Shown in pieces: positions 11,485 to 32,000 of a DNA stretch of 32,000 nucleotides. The notes below the pieces were generated by a model that was given only the letters and a program-made list of their open reading frames with translations, was not told where the DNA came from and did no database searches. The number at the start of each line of letters is the position of its first letter. Positions within the stretch are counted from its first letter, which is position 1. The position numbers and the translations under genes were made by a program. Origin of the DNA: Dickeya dadantii NCPPB 898 (GTDB lineage Bacteria; Pseudomonadota; Gammaproteobacteria; Enterobacterales; Enterobacteriaceae); NCBI RefSeq assembly GCF_000406145.1, contig NZ_AOOE01000043.1, forward strand, positions 1 to 32,000. The letters run 5' to 3'.

Positions 11485-13353
11485 ATGACGCATACGCAGC
11501 AAGAAAAAGCACCAGGTTTGCTGGCTATTTCCGCTCTGGGCATTGTATTTGGCGATATCGGTACCAGCCCGCTTTATACCTTCAATACCGTGATACAACT
11601 GGCCGGCGATGGCAGCCGACCGGAAACCATATTGGGCCTGCTTTCCACCCTGTTCTGGACGTTGATCATCGTTACCTCGATCAAGTACGCCTTGTTTGCC
11701 ATGCGGATCGACAACAAAGGCGAAGGCGGCGTGCTGGCGTTGATGTCGCTGTTGCAGAATAATCAGGCCAAACGCCAGAAATGGATTATTGCCGCCGGGC
11801 TGCTGGGCGCGGCCTTTATCTATGGCGACGGCGCGATCACGCCGGCGATCTCGGTATTGTCGGCGCTGGAAGGACTGGAGCTGGTTTTGCCGGAAACCAC
11901 CGATTACATCCTGCCGCTGACAATAGTCCTGCTGGTCCTTATCTTCGCCATTCAGCCAATGGGTACAGCCAAAATCAGTCGGTTTTTCGCACCGGTGATG
12001 CTGCTATGGTTTGCGACGCTGGCTCTGCTGGGCATCAGGAGCATCATGAATTATCCGGCCGTGCTCTGGGCGTTGAACCCCGTCCATGCGCTGACATTTT
12101 TCGCTACCCACGGGCATATCGCCCTGCTGATTCTGGGCGGCGTGTTCCTGTGCGTCACCGGGGCGGAAGCGCTGTATGCCGATATGGGGCACTTTGGCCG
12201 TAAGCCCATCTGGATTGCCTGGTATACGATGGCGCTACCTTGCCTGCTGCTCAATTATGCCGGTCAGGCGGCATTTATCTTATCCGGCACCGACGCCAAC
12301 AATAATATTCTTTTTCGCCTGTGCCCTCCGGCGCTGCAAATACCGCTGGTGATTCTCGCCACGCTGGCTACCATCATTGCCAGTCAGGCCATTATTTCCG
12401 GCGCGTTTTCCATGACGCGGCAGGCGATTCAGCTCGGCTGGTTGCCCAGAATGAAAATCACCCAGACGGCGGAGCAAAGCTACGGCCAAATCTATCTGGG
12501 CACCGTTAACTGGCTATTGATGGTGGTTACGCTCAGCCTGGTCATCCTCTTCCAGTCTTCGGAACGGCTGGCCGCCGCCTATGGTATTGCCGTTTCCATC
12601 ACGATGCTGATGACGACGCTGCTGTTATATATGGCAATGCGTAAGATTTGGCACTGGAACAAGATGCTGAGTCTCAGCATCACCGCCATTTTTATCCTGA
12701 TCGATGTGGGATTCTGCGTCGCCAATATGCTGAAAGTGTTCGACGGCGGCTATGTTCCGTTGTTGCTGGCGATGCTGATTTTCTGCGTGATGTTTATCTG
12801 GCGTCGGGGTGTGACCCGCGTATCGCAGACCGTGGCGGAAAAAACGCTGCCGGTAGACGAGTTTCTCTCATCGCTACAGGCTGATGGCATTTCGCGCGTG
12901 CCGGGCGTCGCCGTATTTTTAACCCGCGTGCAGAATGTCGCGCCGCCGGTGATGCGCTGGCATGTCAAACGTAACCAGGCCTTGCATGACAAGATCATCG
13001 CCCTGACCATTCAGGTGCTGGATGTGCCGCGCGTCAGGGAGGAAGACAAATTGGTGTTAACCGAAAAATTTCCCGGTTTCTGGCAAGGCGTGGCCTACTA
13101 CGGATTTATGGAGAAACCCAATATTCCCGAACTGCTCAGGCAAACGCCGCCGCTGAAAGCCTGTGCCGATCATGAATCCGTAACCTATTATATCGGCCAT
13201 GAGTCGATCGTCGCCAAAGACAGTACGGACGCCCTGCCGCGCTGGCAATCCTACCTGTTCGCCTGGATGATGCGAAACTGCCTGCATGTCACGGAATACT
13301 ACCAGTTGCCGGGTAATCAGGTGATCGAGATCGGTCGACGCATCGCCATCTAG
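11485..13353 (+). CDS. kup: KUP/HAK/KT-family potassium uptake protein
   Basis: Track ORF 11380..13353. The ATG at 11485 gives 622 aa, the same length as E. coli Kup. It carries the G.VFGDIGTSPLYT signature, EALYADMGHFG, about 12 TM segments and a C-terminal cytoplasmic domain. Confidence 0.9.
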   Translation: MTHTQQEKAPGLLAISALGIVFGDIGTSPLYTFNTVIQLAGDGSRPETILGLLSTLFWTLIIVTSIKYALFAMRIDNKGEGGVLALMSLLQNNQAKRQKWIIAAGLLGAAFIYGDGAITPAISVLSALEGLELVLPETTDYILPLTIVLLVLIFAIQPMGTAKISRFFAPVMLLWFATLALLGIRSIMNYPAVLWALNPVHALTFFATHGHIALLILGGVFLCVTGAEALYADMGHFGRKPIWIAWYTMALPCLLLNYAGQAAFILSGTDANNNILFRLCPPALQIPLVILATLATIIASQAIISGAFSMTRQAIQLGWLPRMKITQTAEQSYGQIYLGTVNWLLMVVTLSLVILFQSSERLAAAYGIAVSITMLMTTLLLYMAMRKIWHWNKMLSLSITAIFILIDVGFCVANMLKVFDGGYVPLLLAMLIFCVMFIWRRGVTRVSQTVAEKTLPVDEFLSSLQADGISRVPGVAVFLTRVQNVAPPVMRWHVKRNQALHDKIIALTIQVLDVPRVREEDKLVLTEKFPGFWQGVAYYGFMEKPNIPELLRQTPPLKACADHESVTYYIGHESIVAKDSTDALPRWQSYLFAWMMRNCLHVTEYYQLPGNQVIEIGRRIAI

Positions 13354-13379
13354 TCATTTATAATTAGTCACTTACGATG

Positions 13380-13418
13380 GAGGACAGGCATATTTCCCTG
13401 CCTGTCCTCGCGTTTATC
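13380..13418 (+). terminator. terminator candidate after kup
   Basis: GAGGACAGGCA-TATTTCCC-TGCCTGTCCTC forms an 11-bp perfect stem. The tail GCGTTTAT is weak. Confidence 0.5.
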
Positions 13419-13635
13419 CCAACCTCTTCCTGCCCGACAAAGGAGAGGCCGTAACTCGTTCCACGTTTGCGCCATACGTAAAACCCACATTTCCCCTCCT
13501 GCCTGACGATAATCACGCCAATGTTTCAAGTTACCGAGGGTATTAAAAATATAAGTATGTTGTAACTAAATAGGTTGTTGTAACTAAATGAGTTTAACGA
13601 GGCAGAGCGACATAGATAAATTCTCAATGAGAAAG

Positions 13636-13665
13636 TGAAAAAATAAAGGGCGGATAGCCGCCCTT
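13636..13665 (-). terminator. rho-independent terminator of prtA
   Basis: The minus strand reads AAGGGCGG-CTAT-CCGCCCTT followed by TATTTTTTCAC, 15 nt after the prtA stop. Confidence 0.75.
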
Positions 13666-13679
13666 CGGTGATCAGACAG

Positions 13680-15152
<1,473 letters not shown>

Positions 15153-15494
15153 TCATTAAATTTTTAGATAAAGAACACCTCTGCCAATCTAATGACATAT
15201 TTTTCAGCATATAAGCCTGATGATATTTGACACAGACAAACAACGCCGTCACTGGCGCTAATTATTTATATAAGCCACTGTAATGTTTTTGTAAAGAGTC
15301 GTTAATCAATTTTCTATTTACTGGAGAGTTAACCCACGGCTTCAATACGATGCTAATTGATTAAAGTGGAATAAGTTATTTGAATGATGGCAAATAAAAA
15401 AGAAACGGTTGCTTGTTAAAACGGTTAATTTTATCGAGAGGATTTAATACAGAGAAAATAATTTCAGGAATGAATTCTACCCTAATGCAGAATG

Positions 15495-23812: not shown

Positions 23813-25246
23813 TTAAACAATAACATCCGACGGTTGTAATGCCGCACCGACAATGTTGACCAGAAAATCAGCCGTCTCGTGCCCGCTTAAATGCAACCAC
23901 ATATTGGTTTGATGAGACTGACTATCCCAATTCAACACCACTTCGTTTCCTTTTCCCGAGAAATTATCCACAAAGCGAAGATCATGATTTTTATTAAATG
24001 CAGATAAATCGATCCGGTCTTCGCCACGCTGGAAATCGGTAATGGTATCCGGCGCCGACGATAGCGAATCCTTTTCCCAGGCATAAACAAAAATGTCTTT
24101 ACCGGCGCCACCGGTTAAAATATCAGCGCCGCCATCGCCATAAAGCACATCATTGCCGGCACCGCCGTCAATACGATTATCAGACAGATTACCCACAATC
24201 ACATCATGGCCTGAACCGCCAATCGCGTTTTCAATCACCGCGCCCGCGGCGATGGAAACATTGCCTTTTAGCCCGCCGACATCCGAGAAGGTGCCGCTAA
24301 TCAGGCTAATACGCTGATTCGCGCTGTAACCGGAGAAATCAAAGGTATCGTTGCCGCCGGCATCCCAAACGGAAAATATCAGCGGCGTTTTGCTGTCTGT
24401 CGCGGTATAAAAATCACGACCACTATTGGAATGAAACCCGTATACCGTATCGCCCGTGCGGGTCGACATATTGGCGCCATACAATTTTTGAATGGCTGCA
24501 ATATCATCCATCAGCGGCGCGGCGGCATGATAGCCATGAAAATCGCCGCCGGTGTACCCTTCATTCCAGTAGCTCATAATACTGAATTGGCGGGTATCCT
24601 CCGCGTAGGTCACGTCTTTATAGCCCGGATTACCGTCGGAAGCGTCATAATCTCCAGGATGATACAGCCCCAGCGTATGGCCGATTTCATGCGTCAGCGT
24701 ATTACGGCCAAATTCATTGATATCCGGCCGCTGATTGTCGGCCTGATTATAATTAAACCAGGCTGAGCCGGCCCATTTCCAATTGCCGGGATAAAAACCG
24801 AACGCCTGGCTGTTGTTATCCGTATTGCCGTCCGGGGTTAATGTATAGTTGCCAAACTGAATGGTGGCGCGCTCACCATCCTTAGCTTCGCTAAATGTGA
24901 CGTTCGCCACATCAGCCCAGGATTGCAATGCCAGTTTGGTCTGTTGAATCTGCGCGGCATTAAATTTGACAAAGCCTTTGAAATTATCAGGCATGTCGCT
25001 ATCAGCGACCGACTGAAGAAAAGAGTAAGTCAGCGCGGCGGATTTACCGAAAACCTTTTCGCCATTCCAGGTAATATTGCCGCGGGTGATTTGATCGCGG
25101 GCCTGCTCCAACGTATAGGACGGCTTATCGCCGATGTTGCCATTGCCGCGGGCGTGGTAATGCCATAATTGATAGACATCCGCCACGCCGGTATAGCCAC
25201 CGGATGATGCGGAAGAAAGATCGGTCTTCTTTCCATATAAAGCCAT
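23813..25246 (-). CDS. prtG: serralysin-family secreted zinc metalloprotease G
   Basis: Track ORF 23813..25291. I prefer the ATG at 25246 (MALYGKKTDL...) after GGAGGA, which aligns its N-terminus with PrtA/B/C. It has HEIGHTLGLYHP, SIMSYW, RTX repeats and a C-terminal ...SDVIV. Confidence 0.9.
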   Translation of the reverse strand: MALYGKKTDLSSASSGGYTGVADVYQLWHYHARGNGNIGDKPSYTLEQARDQITRGNITWNGEKVFGKSAALTYSFLQSVADSDMPDNFKGFVKFNAAQIQQTKLALQSWADVANVTFSEAKDGERATIQFGNYTLTPDGNTDNNSQAFGFYPGNWKWAGSAWFNYNQADNQRPDINEFGRNTLTHEIGHTLGLYHPGDYDASDGNPGYKDVTYAEDTRQFSIMSYWNEGYTGGDFHGYHAAAPLMDDIAAIQKLYGANMSTRTGDTVYGFHSNSGRDFYTATDSKTPLIFSVWDAGGNDTFDFSGYSANQRISLISGTFSDVGGLKGNVSIAAGAVIENAIGGSGHDVIVGNLSDNRIDGGAGNDVLYGDGGADILTGGAGKDIFVYAWEKDSLSSAPDTITDFQRGEDRIDLSAFNKNHDLRFVDNFSGKGNEVVLNWDSQSHQTNMWLHLSGHETADFLVNIVGAALQPSDVIV

Positions 25247-25330
25247 AACATTTCCTCCATGAAATTCGTCTTTATACCCGTAATACTTCAAATTGTAGAT
25301 ATGTTGGCAACACCGCGACTAAACACGAGT

Positions 25331-25610: not shown

Positions 25611-26471
25611 TTACAGCGATGCCAGCGTACCGCGGATAACCTCGGCATAGGGCGTTGTCGAGCGCCCCAGCAACGTCGTCAGCGCGTTCTTATCATCAAA
25701 CAGTCCGCCTTTTTCCGCACCGGCGTCGGAGTCCGCCAGCATATCGGCCAGAAAGTCCGGTAATCCCGCACCTTTCAGCGCGTTGGCGAAATCAGCCTGG
25801 GACAGGTTGATATACTGCACCGGTTTACCGCTTTGCTTCGCAACTTCCGCGGTAAACTCCGCCAGCGTGTAGCTGTGATCGCCGGCCAGCTCGTAAATCT
25901 TCCCTTCCTGACCATGCAGTTGCAGCACTATTGCCGCCGCTTGCGCATAGTCGCCGCGCGCCGCGGAAGCAATGCGACCTTCGCCGGCGGCGCCGATAAA
26001 CGCGCTGTGCGCCAGAGCCGGCGCGATGCTGGCGGCATAGTTTTCGGTATACCAGCCGTTACGCAAAATAACATGAGGGATGCCGGAGGTGCGTAGCGCA
26101 CTCTCGGTCGCCAGATGCTCGGCCGCCAGCCCCAGCGACGAGGTATCCGCGTGCAGCAGGCTGGTATAGGCAATCAGCCCGACACCGGCTTTTTTCGCCG
26201 CGTCAATTACTGCCTTGTGCTGGGTTTCGCGCTTGCCGACTTCACTTGATGAGATCAACAGCAATTTGTCTACCCCGTTCAGCGCGCTGACCAGCGTCTC
26301 CGGCCGATCATAATCACCGTGTCGCACATGAATCCCCTGCGCGGCCAGAGCGCTGGCCTTGGCAGGGTCGCGCACCACCGCAACGATCTGTTCTGCCGGC
26401 ACCGATTTCACCAGCGAATCAATCACCAGACGGCCCAGTTGGCCGGTTGCTCCTGTAATCGCAAACATCAC
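25611..26471 (-). CDS. qorB: NmrA/SDR-like NAD(P)H:quinone oxidoreductase (YtfG/QorB)
   Basis: 286 aa, the same length as E. coli YtfG and colinear with it as recalled: M.AITGATGQLG, KLLLISSSEVG, AYTSLLHADTS.LGLA.EH, LRNGWY.ENY, LADMLADSD.GA.KGGLFDD. AGGAG precedes the ATG. Confidence 0.9.
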   Translation of the reverse strand: MMFAITGATGQLGRLVIDSLVKSVPAEQIVAVVRDPAKASALAAQGIHVRHGDYDRPETLVSALNGVDKLLLISSSEVGKRETQHKAVIDAAKKAGVGLIAYTSLLHADTSSLGLAAEHLATESALRTSGIPHVILRNGWYTENYAASIAPALAHSAFIGAAGEGRIASAARGDYAQAAAIVLQLHGQEGKIYELAGDHSYTLAEFTAEVAKQSGKPVQYINLSQADFANALKGAGLPDFLADMLADSDAGAEKGGLFDDKNALTTLLGRSTTPYAEVIRGTLASL

Positions 26472-26569
26472 GTACTCCTGTTAATGAGAAAACCTTACGC
26501 CACGCTTCAACCCGCATGCTCTCAACGCCAGAACAGGCTGAAGCTCTTGCCAGCAGCATATGACCAAAG

Positions 26570-26602
26570 CTAACTTTTAGTAAGTACTAACAAAAAGGTT
26601 AG
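26570..26602. promoter_or_regulatory. nested inverted repeat upstream of qorB (possible orphan operator)
   Basis: TTAGTA-AG-TACTAA (26577-26590) is flanked by CTAAC (26570-26574) and GTTAG (26598-26602). It is about 100-130 nt upstream of the qorB ATG. Confidence 0.35.
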
Positions 26603-26792
26603 TGTTGAATAAAAATGCCGACAACATCACAGAATGCTCGCCGCCGCCTTCCAGCTGGCATGCTACCGGGTAACCTGTAAGATAATCGACCTGCCGGTTT
26701 TTTAGTTTCAGTCACATCGCACTTATGCGATATTGCTTTTTCAGAGAGCTGATGACGCAAATATTTGTCATATTTGTCACTTCTTTACGTAT

Positions 26793-26819
26793 TTGATTCG
26801 TGATCATCAGAATTATAAT
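26793..26819 (+). promoter_or_regulatory. candidate sigma70 promoter for srfA
   Basis: A perfect -10 TATAAT (26814-26819) lies 58 nt upstream of the srfA GTG. TTGATT (26793-26798) is a possible -35, but the spacer is only 15 nt. Confidence 0.4.
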
Positions 26820-26877
26820 CGCAGATATTGAACACGATTTTCTGCCTTGACGGTTTATCACAAAGGGTCTCTTTGGC

Positions 26878-28194
26878 GTGGCAAAATTATTTTTACGCAG
26901 TGGAAATTTAGACGATTTTCTTGCGTTGGGAGAGAACGGCCAGCCCGTTTATGCTTCGGCGCTGCAACTACGGGAGACACTGCGTCTTCGCAAACAACAG
27001 CACATCGCGGACTGTCTGGCCATCCCCCAACCCAACGAGGATGGCGACCGCATCGACTGGTATGCGCCCTTCGCCGGCAAGATAACCTCCTGGATGGCGG
27101 CCAGCGACGAACAGCGTGAGCAGGCGTTGCTGGTGCTGGAACAGTATCTCGGCACCGTTGGCGCCATTAGCGAGCGGGCGCAGCAATCCAACAAGCCGGC
27201 ACAGAAACTCTTCGGGGTATTGTTGTCGAAAGCCTTTCAGTTTCCAGGTTCCAATCATGTCTATCTGGTGGACGATAAACCGGTCATCACCTTTTGGGGA
27301 TTCGTCAGCCTGGGCAAAAAATCCCGCGCTGATGTGCTGGAGTGCCTGCGCCCGGTTGAACCGGTCGACATTCCCGAGCCGGTTCCGGAACCGCTGCCGG
27401 AAGTGACCACACAGGTCGCCGAACCCGAACCGGAACAACCGCCGCCGCCGGTCGAACCGGAACCGATCGTGGTTGCCGAACCGGTCGCTCCGCCGCAAGC
27501 CGCCCCGTCGCCGCGCCGGGTCTGGACCAGCATCTGGTTGCTGGCGCCGGGCGCCGCGCTGTTGGCGACGCTGGCGTTCCAGATCCGCGGTTGCGTTTCT
27601 CAACCCGAAAACAACGCTCCGCCGGCGGTGACCGCCATCAAACCGGAAAAACGCGCGCTGAGCGCTACGCCGACGGATACGCTTCCACCGCCGAATCTGC
27701 CGTTGCAAGTAGCGACGCTGCTGACGCCGCCAGCGCTGGCTGAACAGAAGAAACCCGAAGAAAAAGCGCCGGAAGCCCCCGCCCATGTCGAGATGAGCGC
27801 CGCGCCGAAAGGCGCGCTGGTGATGCCTGCCGACGCAGTAAAAATCGGCTCCATCCGTTTCCTCGACGGCAACTGGCAGGCGGTCGTTTCCATGAAAAAT
27901 CCGCTGACCGGCAAACCGCCGGTTCTCCGCTACCAGATCAAAGACGGCAAAGGCCGGGTTCGCTTTAACTACAGCGAAAAAGTCACCTGCCAGGCTGAGG
28001 TGGAAGCCGGGTTGCATCAGTCCGGCAATCTGGTGATCAACAGCCGCTATCGGGCGCGCTGCAGCGATGGTTCCCGTTATCCGATGCCGGAAATCGTCTG
28101 CACCCGGCAAGAATCGAGCGAGGCCGCAGAATGTAAAGGCCGCTACGATGCCGACACAGAGCTACCGATGACGATTAAGCGTGAGAGCAAATAA
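26878..28194 (+). CDS. srfA: SrfA-like protein: bitopic membrane protein with Pro/Glu-rich spacers
   Basis: 438 aa with a GTG start. It is first in a coupled three-gene set. The N-terminal sequence and the size and order of the three genes fit my recollection of the Salmonella-type srfABC operon. One TM segment lies at residues 215-236 (VWTSIWLLAPGAALLATLAFQI). Confidence 0.8.
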   Translation: MAKLFLRSGNLDDFLALGENGQPVYASALQLRETLRLRKQQHIADCLAIPQPNEDGDRIDWYAPFAGKITSWMAASDEQREQALLVLEQYLGTVGAISERAQQSNKPAQKLFGVLLSKAFQFPGSNHVYLVDDKPVITFWGFVSLGKKSRADVLECLRPVEPVDIPEPVPEPLPEVTTQVAEPEPEQPPPPVEPEPIVVAEPVAPPQAAPSPRRVWTSIWLLAPGAALLATLAFQIRGCVSQPENNAPPAVTAIKPEKRALSATPTDTLPPPNLPLQVATLLTPPALAEQKKPEEKAPEAPAHVEMSAAPKGALVMPADAVKIGSIRFLDGNWQAVVSMKNPLTGKPPVLRYQIKDGKGRVRFNYSEKVTCQAEVEAGLHQSGNLVINSRYRARCSDGSRYPMPEIVCTRQESSEAAECKGRYDADTELPMTIKRESK

Positions 28195-28196
28195 CC

Positions 28197-31187
28197 ATGC
28201 TGGCAACCCTGACAGATTACAAACAACAAATTACGCTGATTCAGAATAGCGGTATTCAGTTTCTCGATTTTGCGTTAAAGCTCCCGCCGGCCCGGTCAAG
28301 CTTCGCCAATCGCTTTGTTCGCAAGAGCGCCAACGGGCCGCTGTTGCGGCTGACGTACAACGAACACAGCGGAAAATACGCCTTGCCGAGCGCCATGCAG
28401 GTGCTGCCGGAAGCGGTCAATCCGGAATCCAGTTACACGCTGGAACAGTCGTTGCGTCTGCTGAGCAACGTATGGCTGCCGCTGCCTTTTTTCCGTTTTA
28501 ACCCGCCGCGGACCTTCATGGGCGGCCCAAACAACTGGGCGCGGGTACAGGTGCTGGAGCTGGGCGAGCCGGACGATGACGGCAACACCCACCGCCTCTG
28601 TCTGGCCTTCGATACCCGTGTTTATCCGGAAAGTCACGATCTGGAAGCGCTGGCGCCCAGCGAAAGCGACATCAACGCCGGGCGCTTGTTCACGCTGGCC
28701 TACCACAGTGAAGAACTGGACGATTTCCTCGACCAGACCTGGGTGGACGGCTGGCTGCGCGAAGCATTTTCCCAGCAGGCGCTGGTGGTGGAAAGCCGCA
28801 AACCCCGCGATATCCGCCAGAATCTGCGTGAATTCGAATATCAGGCGCATTACCTGAATTTGCTGGATATTATGGCGACGCTGCTGGATGTGCCGGAAAT
28901 CCGCATCACCAGCGGTACGCTGAAAGAGCCGGCCATCAATGTGGATCTGATTCTTGACGTCGGTAACTCCCACACCGCCGGGATCCTGGTGGAGGATCAC
29001 GCCGACGAAAGCAACGGCCTCAAGCAGACCTACGAGCTACAGATCCGCGATTTGAGCCAGCCTCATTATCTGTACAACGAGCTGTTCGACAGCCGGGTGG
29101 AGTTCGCCCAGGCGCGCTTCGGCAAGCAAAACTTCTCCTTCGAAAGCGGCCGCGACGATGCGTTTGTCTGGCCGTCGATTACCCGCGTCGGGCGCGAGGC
29201 CAGCCGTCTGGCGCTACAGCGTCAGGGAACCGAGGGTTCCAGCGGTATTTCCAGCCCGCGCCGTTATCTGTGGGACGAAGAGCCGTATGTGCCGGGCTGG
29301 CGTTTCAGCCAGACCAACAGCCCGCGTCAGCAGGAGCCGCTGGCGACCGCCATGCCGTTGACCATGCTGGTCAACGATGAAGGCCAGCCGCTGTTCAGCC
29401 TGCCGCTGGACGAACGCCTGCCGGTGTTCGACCCGCACTACAGCCGCAGTTCGGTGATGACGTTCATGCTCTCAGAACTGCTGGCGCAGGCGCTGATGCA
29501 AATGAACAGCCCCGCCCAACGCCTGAAGATGATTCACGCCAACGCGCCGCGTCAGTTACGCAACATTATTCTGACCCTGCCCTCGGCGATGCCTAAACCG
29601 GAACGCGAGATCTTCCGGCGGCGGATGATCGAAGCGATCGGTCTGGTGTGGAAAGCGATGGGCTGGCACCCGGCCGATGAGGATTTCCTGACGGTGGAGG
29701 GTAAGCGCCACAGCAGCATGCCGGTGCCGGAAGTCCAGATGGAGTGGGATGAAGCCACCTGCGGACAGATGGTGTACCTCTACAACGAAGCGCAGGTGAA
29801 TTTCGGCGGCCGGGCGGAGGCGTTCTTCGCCAGCATGGCGCGGCCGGACAAAGAACTGGCGGACGACGAACAGCCGGGGAAAACCTTGCGCATCGCGTCT
29901 ATCGATATCGGCGGCGGCACCACCGATCTGGCGATTACCCAATACTGGCTGGACGACGGCGTCGGCAGCAACGTCAAAATCATCCCCCGTCTGCTGTTTC
30001 GTGAAGGGTTTAAAGTCGCCGGCGATGACATTCTGCTGGATGTGATCCAGCTGTATGTGCTGCCGGCGTTGCAGGTCGCGCTGAAAAAAGCCGGCGTCAC
30101 CAGCCCGGACAGCCTGATGACCCGGCTGTTCGGCAGCGAAGGCCGCATGGACGGCCAGCTGACGCTGCGCCAGCAGGTCACGCTGCAAATGTTCATTCCT
30201 ATCGGTCAAGCGATTCTGGAAGCCTACGAACAGTTCGACCCGCTCGATCTGAACGCGGAAATCGACACCACATTCGGCGAAATGCTGCCGCAGGCGCCGA
30301 CGCGCAAAGTACTGGAATACGTCAACAGCGAGATCCAGCGTGAATTGCCGGACGAGGAAACGCCGTTCGATATTCTGCAGGTGCCGCTGATTCTGCGTCT
30401 TGGCAAGCTGCACAGCGAATTTCTGGCCAACCGCATGAGCATTACCCAGCACCTGCGGCTGATGTCGGAAGTGGTGTCGCTGTATGCCTGCGACGTGCTG
30501 CTGCTGACCGGCCGTCCGTCCCGTTTTCCGGGTATTCAGGCGCTGTTCCGCCACCTGCAGCCGCTGCCGATTAACCGCATGATGTCGCTGGATGGCTATC
30601 ACACCAGCGACTGGTATCCGTTTAACAAGCGCGGGCGTATCGAAAACCCGAAATCCACCGCCGCGGTGGGCGCGATGCTGTGCCTGCTGGCGCTGGATCT
30701 GCGTCTGCCCGGTTTCTACTTCAAAGCCGGGGATTTCGAACCCTATTCCACCGTGCGCTACCTCGGTATGTTGGACAGCAGCCACACCCTCACCACCGAT
30801 AACGTCTACTATAACGATATCGATCTGGATGACGCCGATTTCACGCTGGACGATCAGTCCGGTTTCGAAGTACGCGGCTCACTGTGCCTCGGCTTTCGCC
30901 AGTTGGACAACGAACGCTGGCCCGCTTCACCGCTCTACTCGCTGTCGATCGTCGATCCGGAACTGGCCCGCAAGGTGGCCGGCGACAGCGTACTGCACGT
31001 GCGCCTGAAAGTGGTGCCGGGCGACGATAACCTCACGCCGGAACGCGTCGAGATCGCCGACGCGGTGCTAGGCTCCGGGCTCGCCATTTCGCCGCATCAG
31101 CTAAGGCTGAAACTCAACACCTTGTCCAGCACGGTTTCCGGCATGGCACATTACTGGATCGATAGCGGGAGCGTCTTCAAGAAATGA
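28197..31187 (+). CDS. srfB: SrfB-like large protein with actin/Hsp70 (ASKHA)-type nucleotide-binding motifs
   Basis: 996 aa. The ATG lies 2 nt after the srfA stop. Motifs are LILDVGNSHTAGILVED (phosphate-1-like), IASIDIGGGTTDLAI (phosphate-2-like) and VLLLTGRPSRFPGIQ (adenosine-motif-like). Confidence 0.85.
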   Translation: MLATLTDYKQQITLIQNSGIQFLDFALKLPPARSSFANRFVRKSANGPLLRLTYNEHSGKYALPSAMQVLPEAVNPESSYTLEQSLRLLSNVWLPLPFFRFNPPRTFMGGPNNWARVQVLELGEPDDDGNTHRLCLAFDTRVYPESHDLEALAPSESDINAGRLFTLAYHSEELDDFLDQTWVDGWLREAFSQQALVVESRKPRDIRQNLREFEYQAHYLNLLDIMATLLDVPEIRITSGTLKEPAINVDLILDVGNSHTAGILVEDHADESNGLKQTYELQIRDLSQPHYLYNELFDSRVEFAQARFGKQNFSFESGRDDAFVWPSITRVGREASRLALQRQGTEGSSGISSPRRYLWDEEPYVPGWRFSQTNSPRQQEPLATAMPLTMLVNDEGQPLFSLPLDERLPVFDPHYSRSSVMTFMLSELLAQALMQMNSPAQRLKMIHANAPRQLRNIILTLPSAMPKPEREIFRRRMIEAIGLVWKAMGWHPADEDFLTVEGKRHSSMPVPEVQMEWDEATCGQMVYLYNEAQVNFGGRAEAFFASMARPDKELADDEQPGKTLRIASIDIGGGTTDLAITQYWLDDGVGSNVKIIPRLLFREGFKVAGDDILLDVIQLYVLPALQVALKKAGVTSPDSLMTRLFGSEGRMDGQLTLRQQVTLQMFIPIGQAILEAYEQFDPLDLNAEIDTTFGEMLPQAPTRKVLEYVNSEIQRELPDEETPFDILQVPLILRLGKLHSEFLANRMSITQHLRLMSEVVSLYACDVLLLTGRPSRFPGIQALFRHLQPLPINRMMSLDGYHTSDWYPFNKRGRIENPKSTAAVGAMLCLLALDLRLPGFYFKAGDFEPYSTVRYLGMLDSSHTLTTDNVYYNDIDLDDADFTLDDQSGFEVRGSLCLGFRQLDNERWPASPLYSLSIVDPELARKVAGDSVLHVRLKVVPGDDNLTPERVEIADAVLGSGLAISPHQLRLKLNTLSSTVSGMAHYWIDSGSVFKK

Positions 31188-32000
31188 AACCATTAACGCC
31201 CAAACAGCTGTCGAGCCGTCTCAGCCGTCAGTTACAGTCCGTTTCGCAAGGCGTGGATCAGGCGATCGCCTGGGTGGATGAAACCCGGCGCAACGTTCCC
31301 CGCCTGGATATGGAAGCCGATCGGCTTATCGTCAAGCTGCGGCGCTGTCGCAACAAGGCCCGCGGCCTGTCCGATTCGTCGTTAAAAGAGATCGCCATGG
31401 GCATGTTCGGGTTGGCTCAGGGCGGCAAAACTTATCTGCTGACCTCGCTGGCCGGTAACGAAAACGGACGAATTGAAACCTCTATCGGCGGCGTTACGTT
31501 GGATTACCAGAAAAACATCAATCCGGACAACCAGCAACCGGCCTTTGTCACCCGCTTTACCCGGCAGGCTGAAGGCAAAAACACCCCGAATCCGGTACAG
31601 GTCCAGTTGCTCAACGAGGCCGATATCGCCCGAATTATGGCCTATGCCTTCGTACTGGAAGACAGTCAGAACCCGGCGCCGGAGCTTGACGAACAGCATA
31701 TCGCCGAGCACCTGAAAACCCTGTCGTTGCACCGCCAGCAGGAAGCGGTGCCCGGGCTGGACGGCGATGACGTGGTCGCGTTGTGGGATTATCTGGTGCG
31801 CCACGACGCCCGGCGTCAAAAGCCGCTGGAACGCAAATTCTGGCCGCTGGCGGTGGAGCTGGCGCCGCACCTCAGCATCGACGACCGCGCCAGCCTGTTC
31901 TCGGTTCTGTGGGGCGAACAGTCGGAATACACTTCGCTCTACCGCCATTTCGCCCACACGCTGGAGCAATTGTCCGGCACCCGCAAGGTACTGGCGCCGA
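31184..32000 (+). CDS. srfC: SrfC-like P-loop NTPase, 5' part only (truncated by the window end)
   Basis: Not in the ORF track because there is no stop in the window. I hand-translated it from the ATG at 31184, which overlaps the srfB stop as ATGA: MKPLTPKQLSSRLSRQLQS...MGMFGLAQGGKTYLLTSLAG... The frame is open for all 272 codons to position 32000. Walker A GLAQGGKT is at 31409-31432. Confidence 0.8.
   Translation, partial: MKPLTPKQLSSRLSRQLQSVSQGVDQAIAWVDETRRNVPRLDMEADRLIVKLRRCRNKARGLSDSSLKEIAMGMFGLAQGGKTYLLTSLAGNENGRIETSIGGVTLDYQKNINPDNQQPAFVTRFTRQAEGKNTPNPVQVQLLNEADIARIMAYAFVLEDSQNPAPELDEQHIAEHLKTLSLHRQQEAVPGLDGDDVVALWDYLVRHDARRQKPLERKFWPLAVELAPHLSIDDRASLFSVLWGEQSEYTSLYRHFAHTLEQLSGTRKVLAP

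Follow-up and report, generated by a model that had tools for sequence, protein, structure and literature searches.

What do the three genes of the srfABC operon encode, an exported toxin or a machine that works inside the cell that makes it? In many Proteobacterial genomes the operon is labelled "virulence factor," and the question is raised again by the copy at positions 26878-32000 of the Dickeya dadantii NCPPB 898 DNA analyzed here (contig NZ_AOOE01000043.1, positions 1 to 32,000; this whole stretch of 32,000 nucleotides is referred to as the window). Our computational analysis indicates that SrfB, as modelled, is an Hsp70-like ATPase, that SrfC is probably a dynamin-like GTPase, and that SrfA is a predicted bitopic membrane protein built on a modular N-terminal domain. 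We give a probability of about 0.5 to the reading that srfABC forms a cell-autonomous, inner-membrane-anchored Hsp70-like/dynamin-like envelope-remodelling machine rather than a classical exported toxin. Should this be true, the label "toxin/effector" is probably misleading.

The locus had been singled out, in an earlier note made from the DNA alone, as the best candidate in the window for an undescribed system. That description went too far: D. dadantii records already name the genes, SrfB of the window being 100% identical to a D. dadantii protein named "virulence factor SrfB," and papers on the Xenorhabdus stockiae toxin, a 2026 preprint and Salmonella mutants exist. As an entity, srfABC is thus already known, named and annotated. 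The pairing of an Hsp70-like with a dynamin-like protein and the modular family of adaptors carrying the SrfA N-terminal domain (SrfA-N) appear to be absent from the searchable literature, in which we found no paper that connects SrfC with dynamin or the bacterial SrfB with Hsp70.

The three genes lie on the plus strand and are closely coupled, exactly as the earlier note had described them. The srfA stop codon (TAA, 28192-28194) is followed after two nucleotides by the srfB ATG at 28197, and srfB and srfC share a 4-nucleotide ATGA overlap (31184-31187). In the coordinates of most related loci the same 4-nucleotide overlap and a srfA-srfB spacing of a few nucleotides were seen again, and we thus conclude that the coupling is conserved and not due to chance. 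Membership in the Srf families, which the note had proposed, was confirmed for all three proteins by scores above the respective cut-offs. SrfA matched NCBIfam NF040486 with 567.9 bits (E 2e-170, protein residues 3-436 on model positions 1-438; curated cut-off, 150 bits), and SrfB matched Pfam PF07520 with 1497 bits (E = 0, residues 1-993 on positions 1-991 of 992; gathering score, 27.1 bits). For SrfC, the fragment encoded in the window reached 249 bits against Pfam PF10139 (Virul_Fac; E 1.2e-73, first 250 model positions; gathering score, 28.1 bits), and the full-length 834-amino-acid (aa) protein reached 668 bits (E 2.4e-200). The full-length gene of 834 codons was found on the D. dadantii chromosome CP077422.1 (L002:12988-15492), and 271 of the 272 residues of the window fragment are identical in that copy. 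The full-length protein was used in the search for SrfC homologs, the 272-aa fragment as a query having brought back fragments only.

The identification of SrfB comes from its predicted structure and its conserved residues. Searches of PDB sequences with the single sequence and with a profile (phmmer, hmmsearch) gave nothing meaningful, SrfB had no match to Pfam HSP70 even at E ≤ 5, and relaxed scans of diverse SrfB proteins yielded weak matches to FtsA fragments. The AlphaFold2 (AF2) model of SrfB, built with 72 homologs (pLDDT 74.9, pTM 0.67), had 190 Foldseek matches in the PDB at E ≤ 1e-3, with 7ko2_B as the best (E 4.7e-13). All of the best 50 among these 190 matches belong to the Hsp70 family, comprising DnaK, BiP, Hsp110, Ssb, Ssz1 and structures of the nucleotide-binding domain (NBD) only, each with a probability of 1.00; against one such NBD-only target, 7rax, TMt was 0.55. 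The core of the model carries large insertions. The phosphate-1, phosphate-2 and adenosine motifs that the earlier note had recognized fall into this Hsp70-type fold, and they and the catalytic segment (the "EPTAA"-type, connect-1 acid) are strongly conserved (Table 1), D254 and D570 included, in 60 homologs from Gamma-, Beta- and Alphaproteobacteria, Desulfovibrio and Bacteroidota. By profile alignment (hhalign), SrfB residues 564-588 were placed on DnaK 188-212, the phosphate-2 motif of DnaK, with a probability of 21%, and nothing beyond phosphate-2 was aligned. Taken together, the fold matches and the conserved motifs lead us to read SrfB as an ASKHA ATPase that is Hsp70-like in its modelled fold, looks catalytically competent and lies outside the Hsp70 sequence family.

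For SrfC we used the AF2 model of a 95%-identical Dickeya undicola protein (P0127; pLDDT 79.7, pTM 0.78). It starts with two long helices at the N terminus, followed by a G-type P-loop domain into which a helical segment is inserted; the C-terminal half is long and helical and is broken by an acidic disordered loop. The Walker A P-loop with which SrfC had been said to begin is indeed present (GLAQGGKT), though at residues 75-82, behind the two long helices and not at the very start of the protein. Whether the fold is dynamin-like, septin-like or that of another GTPase had been posed as a check, and the best structural match was dynamin-like: Foldseek ranked a Campylobacter dynamin-like protein (DLP) highest (5owv_C, E 3.1e-4, probability 0.99), matched the Nostoc bacterial dynamin-like protein (BDLP; 2j68) at 8.6e-4, and further returned LeoA, mitofusins and Fzo1, so that the top matches were all from the dynamin superfamily. 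Conservation among 54 diverse homologs reaches at least 95% for G76, G81-K82, D349/D352/P354 and T453 and about 90% for D456. These residues make up a G1 motif GxxxxGK[ST], a G3-like motif DLLDFPG (DxxDxPG) and a G4-like motif T453xxD456, each following a beta strand as in TRAFAC GTPases, which the succession of strands and helices in the model also fits; the motifs were assigned by their position in the model, not through alignment to a dynamin profile. On the strength of the model, we regard SrfC as probably, though not provenly, a dynamin-like GTPase.

SrfA contains a single hydrophobic segment of transmembrane grade, and from this predicted segment its topology is most simply bitopic. The Pro/Glu-rich spacers that had been noted earlier are present on its flanks (Table 1). 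The protein also has the layout given in the 2026 preprint, where SrfA is described as a kinase-like pseudo-domain, a transmembrane helix and a periplasmic lipocalin-like domain with the signature FLNGxW/TGKP/CxDGS and four cysteines: in the Dickeya protein, the N-domain and the single transmembrane segment are followed by a lipocalin-like domain at the C terminus (SrfA-C) with FLDGNW (328), TGKP (344) and CSDGS (395) and with Cys 371/395/408/419. Subprofiles of the N- and C-terminal domains match separately in paralogs. Beside SrfB, such paralogs combine SrfA-N and one transmembrane segment with Trypsin_2, with Peptidase_S8 plus SrfA-C, or with VWA or TerD-like heads, which either replace the lipocalin-like SrfA-C or come in addition to it. 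SrfA-N with its transmembrane segment is therefore a reusable unit. At 50% identity, SrfA-N proteins fall into 960 clusters. Heads of the protease and vWA kinds belong to more divergent paralogs, and the long SrfA-N proteins among the best 150 matches of an exhaustive search had no Pfam domain.

These properties suggest how the three proteins could work together. SrfA would be a bitopic adaptor with a catalytically dead, kinase-like N-domain in the cytoplasm, a Pro/Glu linker, a transmembrane segment and a disulfide-bonded, lipocalin-like domain in the periplasm, the latter presumably binding an envelope ligand and coupling the machine to an envelope cue or target. SrfB, in the cytoplasm, may dock on SrfA-N and recruit or regulate SrfC; the latter itself has no segment that would insert into a membrane and would have to be brought to the membrane by SrfA/SrfB. 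Where the periplasmic head marks a site, the inner membrane would then be reshaped, tethered, repaired or vesiculated in cycles driven by ATP and GTP. The physical association of the three proteins is taken from the literature, namely, from coimmunoprecipitation (PMC6950479) and an AlphaFold3 model (2026 preprint), and we infer the dynamin-type membrane remodelling, the order of assembly and a physiological role in envelope or surface behaviour. Further in favour of this reading are the deletion of the Salmonella operon, which impairs swarming alone (PMC4219756), and the co-regulation of the Erwinia operon with motility genes (PMC5683332). In line with the earlier remark that the Srf proteins do not resemble classical secreted effectors, the search for export signals revealed only the internal transmembrane anchor of SrfA; SrfB and SrfC have neither a hydrophobic N terminus nor a transmembrane-grade segment.

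Several points weigh against such a machine. The dynamin matches of SrfC in Foldseek are weak, with E values from 3e-4 to 5e-2 and TM-scores of 0.14-0.26, and sequence and profile searches of SrfC reach the P-loop only, PDB chains having given nothing meaningful. Pfam Dynamin_N did not match SrfC, and the weak matches to MMR_HSR1, RsgA_GTPase and AAA_16 stayed at the level of the P-loop; an hhalign comparison of the SrfC profile with cyanobacterial Dynamin_N proteins likewise aligned the P-loop only, with a probability of 18%. It is because the TM-scores are low and these methods see only the P-loop that we call the dynamin-likeness of SrfC probable. Hydrophobicity analysis of SrfC further detected neither a paddle-like nor any other hydrophobic membrane-binding element. 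The putative order of assembly rests on the modelled complex of the 2026 preprint, the promoter scan in Dickeya (sigma-70, FlhDC box) was uninformative, and the published cytotoxicity to insect and mammalian cells (PMC6950479) is treated here as secondary. Nucleotide hydrolysis, membrane binding and localization of Srf proteins are not reported in the searchable literature.

We also asked how much of the system the window holds. A scan of one genome per species gave 77 SrfB-encoding loci, the open reading frames of which were analyzed by hidden Markov model searches and clustering. The clusters of B, C and A were present in 63, 59 and 43 loci, respectively, always on the plus strand relative to B. 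SrfC adjoins SrfB in about 59 of the 63 true SrfB loci, the exceptions being mostly truncated contigs, and SrfA or SrfA-like genes (SrfA-N paralogs) occur in most of them; the order is C-B in Planctomycetes and in one Bacteroides metagenome-assembled genome. The genes are thus co-conserved as a unit, as the earlier note had expected, yet its view of a three-gene module was too narrow. The commoner form is an operon of roughly nine genes, in which A-B-C are joined by a 330-aa protein of unknown function, a vWA protein, an ABC ATPase, a MacB_PCD/FtsX permease, an FGE-sulfatase-domain protein and a protein of about 230 aa (no significant family match, weak coiled-coil-like matches). The permease with its ABC ATPase, the vWA protein and the FGE-sulfatase protein were found in the srf operon of 26-30 loci, and such companions speak for a function at the envelope. 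This long form is carried by Pseudomonas, Aeromonas, Providencia, Burkholderiales, many Alphaproteobacteria, Desulfovibrio and Klebsiella plasmids. The short form, A-B-C only, was seen in Dickeya, Pectobacterium, Brenneria, Yersinia, Rouxiella, Pantoea, Erwinia, Citrobacter, Kluyvera, Buttiauxella and Morganella, and Salmonella srfABC also has this form (2026 preprint). From the comparison of the two forms it follows that the Dickeya srfABC operon is a reduced core and not the whole system.

A bolder reading of these data, to which we give less credence than to the machine itself, is that they outline an unrecognized class of trans-envelope machines, in which a dynamin-like GTPase and a dedicated Hsp70-like ATPase work on pseudokinase-like bitopic adaptors with swappable heads. 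It is likewise only a tentative suggestion that the heads (lipocalin, trypsin, subtilase, vWA, TerD-like) set where or when the membrane is remodelled. We are no surer that the purpose would be vesiculation or repair of the inner membrane, or defence at the level of the envelope, with the enterobacterial srfABC as a stripped-down core.

Among Enterobacterales with the short form, SrfC becomes shorter step by step, from 834 aa in Dickeya through about 711 aa in the Citrobacter, Kluyvera and Buttiauxella loci (L010, L011, L014 and L015) to 593 aa in Morganella (L017), against about 900 aa at loci L012 and L019-L037; the helical stalk of SrfC seems to have been lost together with the accessory genes. 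In PLSDB, 114 Klebsiella plasmids of the IncFIB/IncHI1B type carry the long form, with SrfB at 44% identity. On one of them, the Klebsiella pneumoniae plasmid NZ_CP096261.1, the long-form locus spans about 16 kb (L082, 7992-24308) between insertion sequences, IS110/IS1 on one side and ISVsa5 on the other, and one of its SrfA-N paralogs is labelled "tellurite resistance domain protein" by PGAP. Anaerobiospirillum (L049:632-8021, L059:25-15669) has an SrfB of about 1330 aa and an SrfC of about 1090 aa with coiled-coil insertions, and upstream, at the position of SrfA, four tandem paralogous genes (620-650 aa) that SrfA profiles miss. A fusion of the anchor to SrfB or SrfC in this genus was considered and rejected, the added length being coiled-coil insertion without a transmembrane segment. 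Cyanobacteria (L073-L080, e.g., L073:5997-13336) contain a conserved triad of a Dynamin_N protein (858 aa), an SrfB-like protein (1128 aa) that matches Pfam SrfB at 1.4e-5, under the threshold, and a 400-aa protein of unknown function. We take this pair of a dynamin and an SrfB-like protein as a contextual analogy, not as homology to SrfC, because hhalign aligned the P-loop only.

Three other explanations of srfABC have to be set against the envelope-remodelling machine. The Srf proteins could form a nucleoside triphosphate-dependent conflict system at the envelope, directed against phages or competitors and using the periplasmic heads as sensors or effectors. It would be comparable to the protection that the dynamin DynA gives Bacillus subtilis against phage and to the GTPase/Hsp70- and vWA-centred systems of Kaur et al. 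(2020). Such a function would suit the swappable heads, the patchy taxonomic distribution and the mobility seen in the Klebsiella plasmids, where insertion sequences flank the copy examined. It would also suit the long form, which joins vWA, FGE-sulfatase (FGS), trypsin/subtilase and TerD-like modules that recur in conflict systems, and GTPase-centric systems with Hsp70 partners have been described (PMC7159879). That same survey, however, mentions neither Srf nor dynamin, all three proteins were without a match among the models of PADLOC-DB v2 even at E ≤ 1, and the annotated recurrent neighbour families include no nuclease, pore-forming or NADase-type effectors. Moreover, in the Pectobacteriaceae genera sampled, the short form keeps its synteny stably and has an ordinary chromosomal context, and the GC content of the operon (58-62%) gives no clear sign of recent foreign acquisition. 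We consider the defence-type role, which the earlier note had allowed for, unlikely. A further observation that speaks against it leads to a second explanation: in Salmonella, srfABC belongs to the flagellar regulon, being clustered with class 2 flagellar genes and controlled by FlhDC, and swarming is poor but swimming normal in mutants of srfC, of srfB (polar) and of the whole operon (PMC4219756). In Erwinia amylovora, expression of the operon drops along with that of genes for chemotaxis and motility (PMC5683332). Both findings would fit a dedicated flagellar or swarming accessory that, for example, changes the membrane or envelope for hyperflagellation or surface wetting. Yet in Dickeya the operon sits between an NmrA-family gene (beside a protease and type I secretion cluster) and oxidoreductases, not near flagellar genes, and FlhDC half-site patterns occur in the window no more often than chance would explain (59 matches; expectation, 51.6), none of them well placed upstream of srfA. 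The srf family also occurs in Tenacibaculum and Polaribacter, Bacteroidota that are not known to have flagella, and the accessory genes of many other lineages suggest a periplasmic rather than a flagellar connection. A flagellar accessory strikes us as quite improbable.

The published view, and the one that we find least probable, is that eukaryotic cells receive SrfABC as a tripartite toxin, possibly through vesicles of the outer-membrane or outer-inner-membrane type. SrfA would serve as platform or effector, and full cytotoxicity would depend on all three proteins. The X. stockiae proteins coimmunoprecipitate as a heteromeric complex and, when expressed in Escherichia coli, show cytotoxicity against several mammalian lines and the insect line CF-203, kill insects upon injection and induce apoptosis (PMC6950479). 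The 2026 preprint, which reports an AlphaFold3 A-B-C complex with an ipTM of 0.66 and SrfA as the platform, argues for vesicle-mediated export, and a table of differentially expressed genes of Yersinia during insect infection lists srfB under virulence factors. On the other hand, the preprint rejects export by the type III secretion system, the Salmonella Srf proteins not being its substrates, and finds no Sec or Tat signal peptides, which agrees with a stably anchored SrfA and with the absence of transmembrane-grade segments from SrfB and SrfC. Known toxin subunits do not look like SrfB and SrfC, which are large NTPases whose folds are of the housekeeping type and whose catalytic motifs are strictly conserved. 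Among free-living, nonpathogenic bacteria, too, the system is common (Methylococcus, Methylocapsa, Desulfovibrio, marine Bacteroidota, Roseomonas and Planctomycetes). Finally, each Srf protein was reported to be "toxic" and cell entering on its own (PMC6950479), which suggests a nonspecific effect of overexpressed protein or lysate.

The features of the locus and of the Srf proteins are collected in Table 1. The operon had been placed next to the protease virulence cluster, and this did not hold in the strict sense: an opposite-strand NmrA-family gene intervenes, and the neighbourhood is conserved in Dickeya loci only. A functional link between srfABC and the Prt protease/type I secretion system (T1SS) cluster was rejected for the same lack of conservation outside Dickeya. 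On the 3' side, about 590 bp separate srfC from an unrelated GMC-oxidoreductase cluster. Given these flanks, the Dickeya operon consists of srfABC alone. In the D. dadantii assembly GCA_013168465.1 (L001:8684-9998, 12988-15490), srfB is intact, but srfA is divided between two open reading frames and srfC among three fragments, reflecting either sequencing frameshifts or pseudogenization of the operon in that strain. The intergenic region upstream of srfA contained no match to the sigma-70 consensus. A small palindrome, ATCGCACTTATGCGAT, lies at 26716-26731, about 150 bp 5' of the srfA start, with a T-rich stretch after it; it was flagged by the terminator scan and could alternatively be an operator. 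Inverted repeats upstream of srfA were unremarkable. With regard to naming, the E. amylovora RNA sequencing paper (PMC5683332) takes srfABC of enterobacteria, by a coincidence of names, for the surfactin-synthetase genes of Bacillus, an error that may propagate.

TABLE 1 Features of the srfABC locus (window positions) and of SrfA and SrfB (residue positions)
Feature	Position	Strand	Remarks
Serralysin-type metalloprotease gene	23813-25291	-	HEIGHTLGLYH zinc motif and GGxGxD repeats; Prt/Inh/T1SS cluster
NmrA-family NAD(P)-binding protein gene	25611-26471	-	Separates srfA from the protease cluster
srfA upstream intergenic region	26472-26877	+	Scanned for promoter
srfA	26878-28194	+	GTG start, 438 aa
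srfB	28197-31187	+	996 aa
srfC	31184-32000	+	5' 817 nucleotides in the window, 272/834 codons; remainder past the window end
SrfA-N domain, predicted cytoplasmic	~aa 1-165		
SrfA Pro/Glu-rich linker	aa 166-210		60-67% P+E
SrfA predicted transmembrane segment	aa 218-236		Sole transmembrane-grade hydrophobic segment; Pro-rich linker after it
SrfA-C domain, predicted periplasmic, lipocalin-like	~aa 316-438		4 Cys
SrfB extra N-terminal beta-rich domain	~aa 1-230		AF2 model
SrfB phosphate 1	D254-x-G256-N257-x-x-T260-x-G262		At least 95% conserved in 60 homologs
SrfB catalytic segment ("EPTAA"-type, connect-1 acid)	D518-E519-A520		At least 95% conserved in 60 homologs
SrfB phosphate 2	D570-IGGGTTD577		At least 95% conserved in 60 homologs
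SrfB adenosine	D766...G772		At least 95% conserved in 60 homologs
SrfB C-terminal beta domain	~aa 855-975		AF2 model

If the envelope-remodelling reading is true, srfABC would offer a tractable bacterial case of a dynamin-type protein that works with an Hsp70-type partner, and swarming, cytotoxicity and vesicle export would become testable through mutants in SrfB D254, E519 and D570 and in SrfC K82, D349 and T453.

Compared with known systems, the modelled core of SrfB has the nucleotide-binding fold of the Hsp70 chaperones DnaK, BiP and Hsp110, and SrfB also has their phosphate-1 and phosphate-2 motifs, catalytic Glu and adenosine motif, its DIGGGTTD corresponding to DLGGGTFD of DnaK. It differs from them in having no match to Pfam HSP70, in the addition of an N-terminal domain of about 230 aa, insertions and a distinct C-terminal beta domain, and in that neither DnaJ nor GrpE is among its recurrent neighbours. 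The modelled SrfC, in turn, resembles mitofusins and the bacterial dynamin-like proteins (Nostoc BDLP, Campylobacter DLP1/2 and LeoA of enterotoxigenic E. coli) in the succession of N-terminal helices, G domain and long helical stalk, and these relatives, like SrfC, are encoded in operons with partner proteins (PMC6104087). Unlike them, SrfC has TxxD as G4 and DxxDxPG as G3, has neither a Dynamin_N match nor a hydrophobic paddle, and is partnered by an Hsp70-like ATPase rather than by a second DLP.

With the GTPase- and vWA-centric conflict systems of Kaur, Burroughs, Iyer and Aravind (2020), the Srf system has in common a GTPase, sometimes with Hsp70-family, vWA, FGS and trypsin components, and variable heads on a constant adaptor. 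Those systems, however, use GAP1 and AP-GTPases and cytoplasmic effectors, their description mentions neither Srf nor dynamin nor MacB (PMC7159879), and all of the variable components are absent from the short form of Dickeya. The closest relatives are the SrfABC systems of Salmonella enterica and X. stockiae (the "SrfABC toxin," or SsrB-regulated factors). Their surroundings differ, Dickeya having the Prt protease/T1SS cluster and NmrA as neighbours and Salmonella class 2 flagellar genes; in Xenorhabdus and Haemophilus, again unlike in Dickeya, srf lies beside a Lol/MacB-vWA-SUMF1 cassette. The three families, the gene order and the coupling are nevertheless the same, the short form is that of Salmonella, and both the domain layout of SrfA and the SrfA-C motifs are as published.

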